From NCBI GenBank assembly GCA_029855935.1, contig JAGSHN010000016.1, positions 64,001 to 128,000 of the forward strand: a DNA stretch of 64,000 nt. Reading direction: 5' to 3'. Position 1 is the stretch's first letter. Every line of letters begins with the position of its first letter. Source of the stretch: Candidatus Thorarchaeota archaeon. GTDB lineage: Archaea; Asgardarchaeota; Thorarchaeia; Thorarchaeales; Thorarchaeaceae. The position numbers and the translations under genes are program-made. Under the pieces are notes generated by a model. It saw nothing but the letters and a program-made list of their open reading frames with translations, was not told the origin of the DNA and searched no databases. Shown one piece after another: positions 8,391 to 44,172 of the stretch.

Positions 8391-9011
8391 TCAGACCTCT
8401 CTGCCGTCGTCATCCGTTGCCGGGACCATTGCCGGCCCGTCTATGACCACCGCATTGGTGCCATTCAGCATGAGGAAGCGACGCAGGTACTGTTCGTTGG
8501 ACAGTTGCAGGAGTACGATGCCCTTCCCTCTGTCAATCTTCAGCACGACGATCGCGCGCTCAAGAGCCCTCGGCAACGCAGAATACGCAACGAGGCCAGC
8601 CATCGACAATATCATGCCTGCAAGCAGTACGGCCGGAATCAGCACAGGACCGCCATAGCGAAGTGCCCGAATGGTTGCAAGGCTGAAGAACAGGATGGGA
8701 TACATCAGAATGAAGAATGCGACGGCCGCGACAAGCTTTGTTGTGGTCGTCCTCACACTGTGAGCGTGCATCTCACATACAGGGATGAGGAATGCCACCA
8801 TCCTATGAGGCTGGACTGTGGGTACGTGAGGACTGAATCCAGGTTGCCAGCTGGGATGGACGTTTGTGCTCTCAGAGGGCGCATCTGTCTCGGCAACCGT
8901 GAGTACTACTAGATCTTCAGGCTCCCCTAGACAGACAGGACAGGCCTCGGGCCATTTCAACTCAGAGAGTTTGCATCTCACTGTAGGGGCATTCTGTCGG
9001 CGCCACCTCAT
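8391..9011 (-). CDS. Hypothetical membrane protein with putative zinc finger
   Basis: CPVC ... PVCEMH pair followed by two TM helices. Confidence 0.7.
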   Translation of the reverse strand: MRWRRQNAPTVRCKLSELKWPEACPVCLGEPEDLVVLTVAETDAPSESTNVHPSWQPGFSPHVPTVQPHRMVAFLIPVCEMHAHSVRTTTTKLVAAVAFFILMYPILFFSLATIRALRYGGPVLIPAVLLAGMILSMAGLVAYSALPRALERAIVVLKIDRGKGIVLLQLSNEQYLRRFLMLNGTNAVVIDGPAMVPATDDDGREV

Positions 9012-38981: not shown

Positions 38982-39806
38982 TCAGAGGGACTTTGTCAGT
39001 TCCTCGAATGCAGCCTTTATGGCCTTGGCTTGGTCAGAGTCGCCAAAGTGGGGTGGCCTTATGTTCAGTCGGTCTTTCTCGATGTCCACCTCAAGAATCA
39101 TCGCGCCGGGGACCTCGATTCTCAGGCCCGACTTTCCACCGCGCTCGTAACGCTCTGCGTATATCAGGTCGCCGTTCTTGACTGCTGCATAGAGCAGATG
39201 CGCAGCCTTCAGCTCTCCGGGTGAGAGTGCTGTGCTGATCGCTGGCTGCGGGCTGGGTGTCGCCCTCTCTTTCTTCGGCGGTGCAGGTGCTGGTCGTCTT
39301 GGCTCGGCCCTCTTCTCCACAGCAGGGCGCTCTGGTGCTGCAGCCGGTGCCGATTCTGTGGCGCTCTCACGCACCTTGACCGGTGCCACCTCATACTCGC
39401 CTGCCAGGCTCTCGTCGTAAGCGAGGACCTCGTCCTCGAACTTCCAAGGTCTGTTGATGACCCTCTTGAATTCCTCTATGTTGGCCGCGACCTCGGGGTC
39501 ACTCGCGTCCTTCTCCAACATCTCAACCAGACGCGATGTGGCCATACCAATAGTGGTGACGCCGACCTTGTGTCCGCTCTTCTGAGTACTCCGTGCAATT
39601 CGCAGTGTGTGCATCCTTGTCGGCATACTGACGTTCTTGCCGACCCACACCCAGCAGGTGTCATTGTATTCGTCGAGCACGATGAGCGCATTGTTGCTGT
39701 TGACAAGGTCCGGATCCAACTTGACCTCTTCAATCTCGCCTGCGTCATCACGAAGCATTAACATAAACGGCTTTCTGGACAGCGGCTTCTTCGGAATCTC
39801 CAACAC
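38982..39806 (-). CDS. Gelsolin-domain protein (one gelsolin domain + Pro-rich linker + C-terminal domain; 1DGelX-like)
   Basis: EEVKLDPDLVNSNNALIVLDEYNDTCWVWVGKNVS matches the gelsolin EV..S.LNS.D.FILD....YVW.GK.S pattern. Confidence 0.75.
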   Translation of the reverse strand: MLEIPKKPLSRKPFMLMLRDDAGEIEEVKLDPDLVNSNNALIVLDEYNDTCWVWVGKNVSMPTRMHTLRIARSTQKSGHKVGVTTIGMATSRLVEMLEKDASDPEVAANIEEFKRVINRPWKFEDEVLAYDESLAGEYEVAPVKVRESATESAPAAAPERPAVEKRAEPRRPAPAPPKKERATPSPQPAISTALSPGELKAAHLLYAAVKNGDLIYAERYERGGKSGLRIEVPGAMILEVDIEKDRLNIRPPHFGDSDQAKAIKAAFEELTKSL

Positions 39807-40159: not shown

Positions 40160-40217
40160 CTGAATGACTCACCGCATCGCCTGACATCTGGCGCCCGTAT
40201 AACTCTTCCCGTCTTGG

Positions 40218-40760
40218 GGGCTCCGTGCAAGAAGTCACCTCCCATCACATCTCAGGAGCTTCAGTCGGTCAATGTTGTGGAGCACCACCTTCAGCAACAC
40301 CTCTCGCCGCTGCTCCCTGTAGCCTTTGGAATTCAGACTCCCTCCGGACCGCACCTTCATCATACTGAAAACGGTTTCCATAAGACTTCTCCTCCCATAC
40401 TTGTGGGTTCGCCTCCACTCCTCAGGACCTCTCTGATACTCCCTGACAAACTCCCTGTACCCGCGATATCTGCGGGGACCGAGCCCTCCGCCCCCTCCTC
40501 GGCTCGATGGCTGGGTATGCACCGAGGTCGGAGATGTACTGGATGTTCGTCATTGATATATGCCCTGTCGTCATAGACGTACTCCAGACGTCTGTGTTGG
40601 TACCTGTTTCAGCAGTGGGACCAGCCCTCTCACATCACCACCGGGTCGCGCCCTTTGTTCAGACCGCGTGGGCCAATCAAGGAGGTGTTGATTGTCTCTC
40701 ATAGATCCGCAAGGTCCCAGCAGGGAGCAGGGGATTGAGGACCGACCATTCGACAGGAGA
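40218..40760 (-). pseudogene. IS5-like DDE transposase remnant (frameshifted, truncated)
   Basis: WRRTHKYGRRSLMETVFSMMK...E.LLKVVLHN in one frame; YVYDDRAY and NIQYISDLGAYPAIEPR in other frames; only the 3' part is present. Confidence 0.75.
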
Positions 40761-41236
40761 GAATGTCGAGACATCACGGATGATTACTGTGCTTCATTCG
40801 TTTCCCCCAGAATTGGCTCGTGCTTGATGTGTTCTCAAGAACTTCACAGTCCGTAGACGGGCATAGTCACTCCGATTGGCACAAGAAAAAGGAATATCGT
40901 ACCAACAATCGGTGCGATAGGGGGTGGGATCTCTCCCGGCTCACCGATGGCGTTCCCAAGAGTGGACATCAACTACTAGCCCGTCTAGAAGAAGCGGGAA
41001 ACAGCTCGCCATCTCATCGAACAACTACTAGCTCAACATTCAGTCTTCGGTGAATCTTGCCTGAGGATTGATCACCTTGACATAGTCGATTGCTGAGGCG
41101 AGATGTACCCAACACCCTGAGGAACAGCATTCTGACAAGACTCATCCCGGTGTTTGCATTGTATTGCGTCTGCACCGATGCTTGATGGAGTGAGATGCAG
41201 GATGAGTTCGTAGAAGAACCGAGACTGTAGTTCATC

Positions 41237-41354
41237 CTCGCCTCGTCTACGAGAATCCCCTCCTTGATAGCCTTTTCCCCCTCAGATGCACGCAAGCCCT
41301 GCTGACCGATTGGCCCTGTGTGGAGAGTCCACAGCAACGAGTTCATATCTACAG
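41237..41354. repeat. 118-bp direct repeat, copy 1
   Basis: Ungapped alignment to 43300-43417, 90/118 identical by manual count. Confidence 0.9.
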
Positions 41355-41467
41355 GCTACGCACTGGGCGATTGGGGGTCTCGCTCCAAGACTCGCCGTGG
41401 CCGTCGTCCTCTCTAGTTCGGACGCACGTAGTGACTTATCACGCACCTCTCGACCAATTTGATAGCT

Positions 41468-42097
41468 CTATGCGGACCAATTGGCAGAGACTGGGCGCGG
41501 TGTGCCATTCACGGGAACAAGTTCTAGTCTGTAGGAGTTGCGTTGACGCCTTATCATGCTGAACTGTAGACGAAACCCCTGTCTATGTGCGACACGACTG
41601 GCCCTGTGGTATTCAATGAGATTGACAAGCGCAACAACAGAGGCGAAAGAGGCGCCCGGAAGACCGATGAACATGGCCAACAGGTTGCCCGTGTTCGGAG
41701 AGGGACAGACAGCATTCCACAGTGCCTGTACTATGATTGACCAGGCAATTCCGAGCAACGGGCCGGACAATATCAGAAAGACACGTAGTGCGCCAAGTTG
41801 AACGACGTGGTGATGAAGAGCATCGGTGTACAACCGGTGGACGGGGACGTACAGAAGCAGGCCGACCATTCCACCTGCGGTGATACAGAGGTACAGGACG
41901 GGCTTCACACGTTCAACGCCCAAGAATGCAACCAGAGCACCATCTACGGGATTGTGAACAATGAAGACATAGGGCGACAGGAGATAGGGCAATAGGATGA
42001 TGAGCAGGAGTGGCAAGGTCATCAGGTAGAGCCAGTTGGTCCGCACCAGAGGCTGTGGAACTCTCTGGGAATCCGAACCTGTATTGGTCTCGTCCAT
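41468..42097 (-). CDS. 4-TM membrane protein (candidate immunity protein)
   Basis: Four hydrophobic helices; GGGGGTGA SD-like motif before ATG 42097; directly follows the secreted protein. Confidence 0.75.
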   Translation of the reverse strand: MDETNTGSDSQRVPQPLVRTNWLYLMTLPLLLIILLPYLLSPYVFIVHNPVDGALVAFLGVERVKPVLYLCITAGGMVGLLLYVPVHRLYTDALHHHVVQLGALRVFLILSGPLLGIAWSIIVQALWNAVCPSPNTGNLLAMFIGLPGASFASVVALVNLIEYHRASRVAHRQGFRLQFSMIRRQRNSYRLELVPVNGTPRPVSANWSA

Positions 42098-42116
42098 CTG
42101 TATCACCCCCTGCGGA

Positions 42117-43295
42117 CTATGATCTGATGTAGTGGCCATCACAAGGCTCAGGCCAAGCGATGCCAGACGAACCGTCGCTTATCATATGAATCCACCAGCC
42201 ACAGCCAATCTTCATTCGCATATGATTCCTCTCAAGTATCTCGTAGAAGACCCAACCCGAGTCTGTCTCATCAGGTAGAACTGGAGAAATGACCACTGCA
42301 ACGGTGAATCCAGCAAGTGCCAAGACAGCTGCGATAAGTCCTGCAACCGGTACAGAGATGCCAGCGGTCACGGCCGCAGCTTCAACGCCTAGAGCCACTA
42401 CAAGTCCAGCAAGTGAAACGATACCTCCGTTTTTCCAGAATTCGACGGTGCCTCTCGAGACGTGATTGACCTGCATACCACCAGTGGCTATACCACTACT
42501 GTCTCTTGTCGTACGATCAATGGTGAAGTCAACAGCTGGTCCAACCCCCATCGTGGTGTAGTAGTATGTGTAGTCTGGATGGTCGTAGAACACCTCGTGG
42601 TCAGGATCGATACTGTACGCATCCCAGTATATTCCCTTGTAGTAGAAGTCATAGGTGGTGGATGGTGGAGCAGGCGGGGAACCGCCTCCGACGTAGTGCA
42701 GAAAGATAGGTGCATCTGGGTCCGAGAAGAGGTCAATCAGACGCCTCCTGAACTGGGATAGAATGTTGACAACGGTGACCGGCTCTCTTGCGGACGAGAA
42801 CAGTAGATACGAAGTGACCAGAGCCCCCAAGACGGCATCTACTGTCCCGAAACCAAGCACGGAACCTCTCTCTGCGTACCGGGTGATCTCAATCGAGCCA
42901 CACGCCAACACGATGTCCTCTCCGGGGGTCAACTCAGTTCTACTACTGAACGCGCGCCAACTGAGAACCAGCGGTCCTGCAAGAATTCCTGCCTCTGACC
43001 CATGGGACACCCATACGACCTTTCCGAACACCCGATGGACGGTCAGGACATATTCCAACGAGCCGTATTCCACCACCCGCACATCCGGCACGTTCTCTGT
43101 GATGGTCCGAACCGCTGTGTTCACTGCACCGTCGTGATGCATGACGACCACCACATCCGAGATCACGGGTGCCGAGAGGGGCATGACCCACAACGGTAAC
43201 ACCATCACGACGACTAGCAGAACAAGCTCAAGCCTCAAGAAGGCACGGCTATGCGACAGACCTAGCTTCCTACGTACACCGACTGCACAACTCAC
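42117..43295 (-). CDS. Secreted protein with caspase/CHAT-like His-Gly...Ala-Cys domain and C-terminal hydrophobic hairpin (candidate toxin precursor)
   Basis: GAGGTGA SD-like motif, GTG 43295, signal-like hydrophobic N-terminus, VVWVSHGS...IVLACGS, GGGSPPAPPS linker, Gly/Ala-rich hydrophobic hairpin. Confidence 0.7.
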   Translation of the reverse strand: MSCAVGVRRKLGLSHSRAFLRLELVLLVVVMVLPLWVMPLSAPVISDVVVVMHHDGAVNTAVRTITENVPDVRVVEYGSLEYVLTVHRVFGKVVWVSHGSEAGILAGPLVLSWRAFSSRTELTPGEDIVLACGSIEITRYAERGSVLGFGTVDAVLGALVTSYLLFSSAREPVTVVNILSQFRRRLIDLFSDPDAPIFLHYVGGGSPPAPPSTTYDFYYKGIYWDAYSIDPDHEVFYDHPDYTYYYTTMGVGPAVDFTIDRTTRDSSGIATGGMQVNHVSRGTVEFWKNGGIVSLAGLVVALGVEAAAVTAGISVPVAGLIAAVLALAGFTVAVVISPVLPDETDSGWVFYEILERNHMRMKIGCGWWIHMISDGSSGIAWPEPCDGHYIRS

Positions 43296-43299
43296 TATT

Positions 43300-43417
43300 C
43301 TCACCTCATCGACGAGAACCCCATCCTCGATAGCCATCTCCCCCGCAGATGAATATGAGCCTTGCCGACCAGTTGACCCTGTGTGGAGAACCCGCAACAA
43401 TGAATTCAGGCCTACAG
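43300..43417. repeat. 118-bp direct repeat, copy 2
   Basis: Matches 41237-41354; contains the SD-like motif of the 42117..43295 gene. Confidence 0.9.
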
Positions 43418-43860
43418 ACCAGACGCTTCTGGGTCTAGCTCATAGATCTGCTGTGGGCATTGATCTCTCTGATTCGGACCTACTTGATGGCTCTTCCCAT
43501 AGAGCCCGTCTTGGTCGCTAAGTGTGGACTGCTGGACTGTGTCCGTCATAGAGAATGTGAAGACACTGTGTGATGGGAATTCGATGTGCCACCAAGCATA
43601 GAATACGACGAGAGTGGGACCTCAGCGCGTCTTCTTAGTCATCCATTGGTTTCAATGGTAGGTCCCTCAGTCACTATCTCGAATGCGATAGTACTCGCAT
43701 CCTTCGTGCATTCGACGGCCGGCTTCAGTCACGGGAGAACAGCAAGGGGCATCTCCGGCGGGACGCCGATGACTGACCAGTGGCTGCTGGGAAACAGCAG
43801 GTTGGACCGAGCGCGTTGCCGCAGAGCGGCCGGCTCAGCCCAACATGCCCGAACTACTGG

Positions 43861-43998
43861 CTACTTGCCCATCGCAAAACGCGGGCACTTCTCTTTGGTC
43901 ATGCCCGGCGTCTCACAGGGCTTGTTCATCCCTTCGTAGAACTTGAATCCATCAACGCCACAGGTATTGTTCTCAGCATTATACTCCGGACAGGTCAT
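43861..43998 (-). CDS. Small 4-Cys protein (45 aa), putative metal-binding
   Basis: Below the ORF-track cutoff: MTCPEYNAENNTCGVDGFKFYEGMNKPCETPGMTKEKCPRFAMGK*, preceded by GGAGA. Confidence 0.6.
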   Translation of the reverse strand: MTCPEYNAENNTCGVDGFKFYEGMNKPCETPGMTKEKCPRFAMGK

Positions 43999-44172
43999 TG
44001 GTCCTATCTCCACATCGTGTCAGTTGAGATTGTCAGATCCCCGTCGCCGTGTCACCATGGGGAACGGACACTCTAGGAAACAAGTCTCGCACCATATTAA
44101 GATTGTTAGGCTGTCACTGCAGAAAGCCCCGAAAACGCCCCCAGAGGGCGATTTGTGGCACATTGATGTCAT

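Follow-up and report, generated by a model that had tools for sequence, protein, structure and literature searches.

A putative self-processing, membrane-active polymorphic toxin with a clan CD peptidase head and its candidate immunity gene in Thorarchaeota

Bacterial polymorphic toxins with a caspase-like releasing peptidase combine a constant N-terminus for trafficking and processing with a variable C-terminal domain, the peptidase being placed just upstream of the latter. An immunity gene follows downstream, and standalone C-terminal cassettes recombine onto the gene (Zhang et al., 2012, PMC3482391). Such systems have been called rare in archaea (PMC3482391). Clan CD of the peptidases is defined by a dyad of His and Cys that follow strands beta3 and beta4; the autoprocessing cysteine protease domains (CPDs) of family C80 are specific for Leu and are reported as the only family of the clan with a preference for Leu at P1 (PMC4357240). 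In caspase-7, loop 5 and the Gly that follows the His bind P1 (PMC4357240). With respect to exported or virus-encoded antagonists of archaea, halocin C8 is cut from a precursor, and a downstream transmembrane (TM) gene in the Sulfolobus virus SSV9, presumed to encode an antitoxin, was not confirmed in this role (PMC8628083).

Here, a window of 64,000 nucleotides was analyzed (positions 64,001 to 128,000 of contig JAGSHN010000016.1, assembly GCA_029855935.1, Candidatus Thorarchaeota archaeon). It contains two adjacent genes, A and B, for which the original prediction had proposed an exported, self-processed toxin with a caspase-like domain and its immunity protein. Judged from sequence, the pair has the genomic hallmarks of the bacterial systems introduced above, with domains that are undescribed. 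It likely encodes a Sec-exported, self-processing, membrane-active polymorphic toxin and the cognate immunity protein.

Layout of the locus and the peptidase head

Gene A is an intact open reading frame of 392 codons running from a GTG at 43295 to a TAG at 42119-42117, with an SD-like GAGGTGA 5 nt upstream of the start (for an overview see Table 1). Gene B starts with an ATG at 42097, 19 nt past the stop of gene A and preceded by the SD-like GGGGGTGA (42110-42103), and its product displays four hydrophobic helices by hydropathy. The four-TM gene with its own SD-like motif about 20 bp past the stop, as read in the original prediction, was thus recovered, and so were the features proposed for gene A: a signal-like start, His and Cys codons 34 codons apart and each ending a strand (the structural model places strands E50-53 and E84-87 just before the two residues), and a linker followed by a Tyr-rich tail with a hydrophobic hairpin. 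A basic and hydrophobic leader was present in 86 of 89 full-length homologs as determined by a heuristic rather than by SignalP; this signal-like leader would represent the export or delivery module expected of a polymorphic toxin. Comparison with relatives yielded dN/dS values of about 0.1-0.18 for the head, the tail and gene B, i.e., purifying selection on both intact genes, indicating that all three are real and maintained.

Table 1. Features of the A/B locus (positions within the window).
Feature	Position	Strand	Remarks
Gene A	42117..43295	-	392 aa: signal, clan CD head and variable membrane-active tail; putative polymorphic toxin
Gene B	41468..42097	-	membrane protein of 209 aa with four TM helices, candidate for the cognate immunity function; 9/9 linkage, orphan copies, purifying selection
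Signal-peptide-like N-terminus, residues 1-41	43173..43295	-	basic n-region, hydrophobic 24-42, conserved P/A-L-S-x-P end; KD 2.56
Predicted clan CD peptidase head (minimal caspase/CHAT/CPD-like), residues 44-199	42699..43166	-	AlphaFold2 model (pLDDT 94.6) and structural matches
Predicted catalytic His98 (VVWVSHGS)	43002..43004	-	invariant in 110/110; end of strand beta3
Predicted catalytic Cys132 (IVLACGS)	42900..42902	-	invariant in 110/110; end of strand beta4
Leu199, predicted P1 of self-cleavage, head/tail boundary	42699..42701	-	column conservation, beta-bridges, recombination breakpoint
Variable tail type X, 193 aa	42120..42698	-	Gly/Pro linker, Tyr-rich beta region, hydrophobic hairpin, beta region
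Hydrophobic hairpin of the gene A tail, residues ~291-336	42288-42425	-	KD windows 291-309 and 318-336
Accessory island, ~3.6 kb	40214..43860	.	between AsnC/Lrp gene and small conserved ORF/glpQ
Gene A leader, 121 nt (promoter/UTR/SD region)	43297..43417	-	direct repeat (76%) of 41234-41354; SD-like GAGGTGA at its end, ahead of the GTG
Second A-gene leader copy	41234..41354	-	SD-ATG, no A reading frame behind; remnant of deleted next unit
IS fragment (DDE transposase) at island edge	40235..40522	-	Pfam DDE_Tnp_1_6 E 0.01; many copies in congeners

A search of 1.84 billion representatives identified 118 relatives of gene A. When 110 heads sharing 21-67% identity were aligned, only His98 and Cys132 turned out to be invariant, while Gly99, Gly103, Ser134 and Asp153 were nearly so. 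Among the 1807 long frames of the source genome, only 10 contained a loose version of the His/Cys motif, which, together with the invariance of both residues down to 21% identity, indicates that the motif is beyond chance. In the confident AlphaFold2 model, the head forms an alpha/beta fold that consists of helices and the core strands beta1-4; His98 directly follows the C-terminal end of beta3, and Cys132 that of beta4. The best structural match was the SAVED-CHAT protein 8tl0 (Z 10.3, rmsd 4.3 over 147, Foldseek E 2.9e-4), the next unrelated structure reaching Z 8.6. Further matches comprised an RTX cysteine protease domain (RTX/MARTX CPD 3eeb, Foldseek E 3.6e-3), legumain and caspases, amid generic alpha/beta structures, and the structure atlas added clusters of CHAT (TM 0.61-0.63), C13 and C14. 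The caspase-like domain of the original prediction held up in both fold and conservation: according to the model, the head almost certainly adopts a clan CD fold, and from its sequence it is very probably an active protease. No member of the 110 heads scored above the Pfam threshold, the faint matches being to C25 (E 0.023) and C13 (E 0.026), and profiles did not place the head in any of the named clan CD families (C11, C13, C14, C25, C50, C80, CHAT). As no Pfam family reaches threshold, the head would constitute a new minimal family within clan CD.

Conservation along the head/tail alignment stopped abruptly at Leu199, with nothing conserved beyond. Leu occupied this column in 96 of the 103 homologs that have a residue there, and the P2 position was often Pro. 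The head model contains isolated beta-bridges at Phe198/His200 and at Gly99/Asp153, and because the latter two residues lie in the P1-binding regions known from caspase-7, the bridges suggest that the head/tail junction sits in the active site, which we take as a hint only. Self-cleavage is quite probable after Leu199, which is the best candidate position by sequence and directly precedes the Gly/Pro linker.

Exchangeable tails and their downstream partners

The 101 tails fell into 38 BLAST-distinct groups, and 100 of them contained at least one hydrophobic helix. Between tail types, heads were 61-96% identical and tails 18-30%; in the pair P0006/P0008, the values were 96% for the heads and 47% for the tails. 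A constant N-terminus with exchangeable C-terminal domains, as in polymorphic toxins, is therefore evident. The helices of the tails were composed of G/A/S to 30%, compared to 18% in the downstream partners, and K/R content was 3.9% versus 8.8%. Net charge was negative in 83% of the tails, with little positive-inside bias. In gene A, G/A/S make up 45% of the hairpin and the net charge of the type-X tail is -11. By composition, the partners look like ordinary resident membrane proteins and the tails more like hairpins that insert post-translationally. Pore-formers typically possess hydrophobic hairpins rich in G/A, and their immunity proteins are typically located in the membrane. We give pore-type action of the tail about an even chance.

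The model of the type-X tail was of low confidence (pLDDT 58) and shows a beta-sheet from which the hairpin projects. Searches of the PDB by Foldseek or VIA gave no meaningful match to it (best Z 6.0), a result that, for a model of this confidence, does not demonstrate a new fold. The tail also matched no known toxin family or fold in the searches made, the sole leads being weak ones to Bacillota hypotheticals (score 0.85 or less), and Pfam, NCBIfam and PADLOC assigned no family to gene A or gene B. Some longer members of the family carry additional domains after the tail, Ig with a weak Hint match in P0106 and PKD repeats in P0131 from Heimdallarchaeota.

Tails and downstream genes were strictly paired. 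Across 48 loci, all pairs of loci with a common downstream-gene family also had a common tail family (89/89; shuffles gave a mean of 14 and a maximum of 47, and related genomes inflate the 89). A homolog of B, down to 27% identity, followed each of the nine close type-X tails with context, two orphan fragments included. The adjacent gene accordingly co-varies with the tail as in polymorphic toxins, and the expectation of the original prediction that the head would be constant while tails and linked TM genes are swapped was confirmed. All computational checks suggested with that prediction gave the expected outcome, and no result that would have contradicted it was obtained from them. Distant type-X-like tails (P0115, P0129) were followed by small TM genes without detectable relation to B, and about 10 of 58 loci had no clear downstream gene. 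Homologs of gene B without a tail occurred three times, two of these in tandem behind a different pair (L070). This retention and duplication of B, and the lack of any close type-X tail without B, fit an immunity role for B. The prediction of a complex of tail and B returned a score of 0.00 ('no answer') and was not counted as evidence. Over a short range, the swapped tail and B described below gave a dN/dS close to 1; since few changes underlie this value and the end of the orphan is shifted, we do not postulate positive selection.

In the source genome (contig C16:116235-118165), the genes behind tail type Y encode a soluble protein of 263 aa and a second paralog of 199 aa. The partners of type Y were the only non-membrane partner family seen repeatedly.

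On an exported protein of at least 848 aa encoded in the source genome (C22:1-2544, minus strand), a distant His-Gly/Ala-Cys head (profile E 4e-7) is followed by long beta-rich repeats up to the end of the contig. As a distant copy is present on such a large surface protein, a protein is not a toxin merely by virtue of carrying the head. Tails with four to five hydrophobic helices behind a signal peptide could, in addition, be inserted into the membrane of the producer by Sec. For these two reasons, the main rival explanation is non-lethal self/non-self recognition or adhesion, in which the head would mature a polymorphic surface 'identity' protein kept in the producer membrane, B would serve as its allele-specific receptor or co-subunit, and matching alleles would govern contact, fusion or exchange. 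Recognition would leave an identical genomic signature of allele-specific pairs and swapping, and the Ig and PKD extensions point in the same direction. However, B is kept and duplicated without a tail but close type-X tails do not occur without B, the positive-inside signal by which resident membrane proteins are marked is missing from the tails, and the partner of one tail type is soluble; we therefore regard recognition as unlikely.

Exchange at the junction was observed directly between two related strains. The array at locus L004 (GCA_021498125.1) consists of A with tail X, B, A with tail Y, the soluble partner, an orphan X tail, B' and an orphan Y tail. Locus L006 of the related strain corresponds to the first gene of L004 at 92.6% up to position 8557 and, beyond this breakpoint, to the orphan X tail and B' of L004 at 93.6%. 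The breakpoint is no more than about 20 nt away from the Leu codon at the junction, and since the match switches at the junction, the orphan tail and B' have been placed onto a head in L006. Contig C16 of the source genome harbors two additional intact members, whose tails and partners are different ones, as well as one frameshifted copy and one broken copy. It also contains the orphan end of a type-X tail, with a B homolog behind it. The two intact paralogs (P0019 and P0024) have sister heads (SH-aLRT 95, in a quick tree with many weak nodes) and tails common to other genomes. Standalone tail/immunity cassettes and recombination, as described for polymorphic toxins, are represented by the orphans of L004 and C16, the tandem B of L070 and the switch in L006.

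The many broken copies in the source genome speak for another explanation, in which A would be nothing more than a membrane or surface protein that matures itself and has a partner for folding or assembly, its variability reflecting neutral drift of a dispensable family. Breakpoints at the junction, non-homologous tail replacement, strict tail-partner pairing and orphan cassettes, but also purifying selection on all parts, render this explanation highly improbable.

Other genes were noted beside the arrays. A different family of 319 aa with a signal, a CHAT-like domain (PF12770 E 1e-4) and a hydrophobic hairpin is encoded at L004:18046-19005 and L006:12282-13241. Genes with prenyltransferase/squalene-cyclase repeats recurred in several genomes, at C16:112951-114375 (L002), L004:16600-17544, L006:10836-12182 and L068:6319-7119, the calls being based on Pfam for L004, L006 and L068 and on appearance only for the C16 gene.

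Accessory island and distribution

The island carrying A and B is missing in two congeners (G281 and G287), in which the flanking genes are about 165 bp apart, and its GC3 is 0.58-0.61 compared to 0.63-0.69 in the neighboring genes. The 121-nt leader of gene A also occurs ahead of a decayed A copy on contig C10. Derivation of this repeat from the 3' end of gene B was considered and rejected, as the similarity was non-significant (shuffle p 0.29 and 0.08) and an A-gene leader fits better. The original prediction had placed the pair in a decaying accessory island. The empty site in two congeners confirms the island as such; decay applies to the IS remnant and the deleted second unit but not to A and B themselves, which are intact and under purifying selection.

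In a third congener, porB and a truncated glpQ flank an inserted head-tail/partner pair of a different kind, about 2 kb from the site used here (L049:5358-7766, G069 contig C1), and this is possibly an insertion hot spot. Adjoining the island is a small Cys-rich ORF of about 45 aa (43861-44004, minus strand), which is 88% identical in three congeners and had no Pfam match. A conserved gene of 274 aa (38982-39806, minus strand), about 60% identical in congeners, likewise had no match in a Pfam search; we take its N-terminal part to be gelsolin-like in appearance.

The head profile matched 112 of 301 Asgard genomes from 16 of 30 families in a patchy manner, with 0 to 12 scored matches per genome, the weaker of which may include the head on other surface proteins. 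Homologs were found in Thorarchaeota and other Asgard groups, and every homolog named to a lineage was Asgard; none was found in phage records or IMG/VR. A literature search, with the 2019 archaeal survey (Makarova, mBio) outside its reach, did not retrieve a published description of the Asgard family.

The accessory location, the best fold match to a defense-associated CHAT protein, and the combination of a protease, a membrane-active tail and an inhibitor would also be compatible with a cell-autonomous, gasdermin-like death or defense module, in which infection or stress triggers release of a membrane-damaging tail inside the producer and B acts as the inhibitor. The signal peptide, however, points to a protease outside the cell, neither a sensor domain nor a PADLOC match was found, and tail diversification and orphan arrays better fit cell-cell conflict, so that such a module appears quite improbable.

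Proposed mechanism and comparison with described systems

A toxin/immunity role of the A/B pair remains the reading we consider likely. Several observations speak against it: the tail resembles no known toxin, tails are mostly acidic, those with four to five helices could end up in the membrane of the producer, distant type-X-like tails have unrelated TM genes behind them, some loci have no clear downstream gene, the head is also present on a large surface protein, and the presumed antitoxin gene of SSV9 was not confirmed as such. Protein A would be exported via its signal peptide, and the head would cut in cis after Leu199 to free a tail of about 190 aa. The hydrophobic hairpin of the tail, rich in G/A/S, may then insert into the membrane of another cell nearby, probably a related one, and the tail would harm this cell, most likely by permeabilization. 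In the producer membrane, the product of gene B would neutralize only its own tail type, as the genomic pairing suggests. New specificities would arise by recombination at the junction with downstream orphan tail and partner cassettes, as seen between the two strains. Delivery by contact or vesicles is at least as plausible as free diffusion of the originally proposed 'archaeocin'.

In a wider sense, it may be, at roughly even odds, that many Asgard families carry an arsenal of self-processing membrane toxins. In these, the releasing protease would be minimal, specific for Leu and of a new caspase-fold family, and the tail it frees would be one of dozens that are unrelated to each other, insert into membranes and have an immunity protein of their own. 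If true, this would be a first worked-out system of cell-cell warfare or kin discrimination in the lineage from which eukaryotes arose, and would show for archaea that a protease can activate membrane permeabilization. Little is known about competition and the distinction of kin from non-kin in Asgard archaea. The A/B family is widespread and small, and it is testable in ordinary hosts. Both the dyad and the cut site are predicted, and natural tail/partner pairs are available by the dozen, with controls across pairs. From the closest prokaryotic relatives of eukaryotes, the family would contribute a set of membrane-active domains and a new peptidase family of clan CD.

The layout of A and B corresponds to that of the bacterial polymorphic toxins (PMC3482391) in the constant N-terminus, the position of the peptidase, the downstream immunity gene and the recombining cassettes. 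In contrast to these, the A family is Asgard and compact (300-400 aa) and does without RHS, FHA or LXG; almost all of its tails are hydrophobic and not enzymes, and tail and partner match no described family. The CPDs of MARTX and TcdA/TcdB (MEROPS C80) share the clan CD fold with the head and were its only, weak, sequence matches in the PDB (E 0.45); their autoprocessing after Leu (PMC4357240) is what is predicted for the head. With ~155 aa, the head is, however, smaller, its His and Cys are 34 residues apart, and its predicted cut is located C-terminal to the domain, whereas CPDs first cut N-terminal to beta1. CHAT peptidases, including TPR-CHAT and SAVED-CHAT (PF12770), provided the best structural match, but the head has no Pfam CHAT match and no sensor domain, and is predicted to be exported rather than cytoplasmic. 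Halocin C8, sulfolobicins, Sec-exported bacteriocins and colicin-type hairpins resemble A as exported archaeal or bacterial antagonists, although no sequence or fold match to A was found among them. Compared to halocins and bacteriocins, the A family would have its protease built in and its immunity encoded by a separate gene, and its tails are mostly acidic, unlike cationic bacteriocins.
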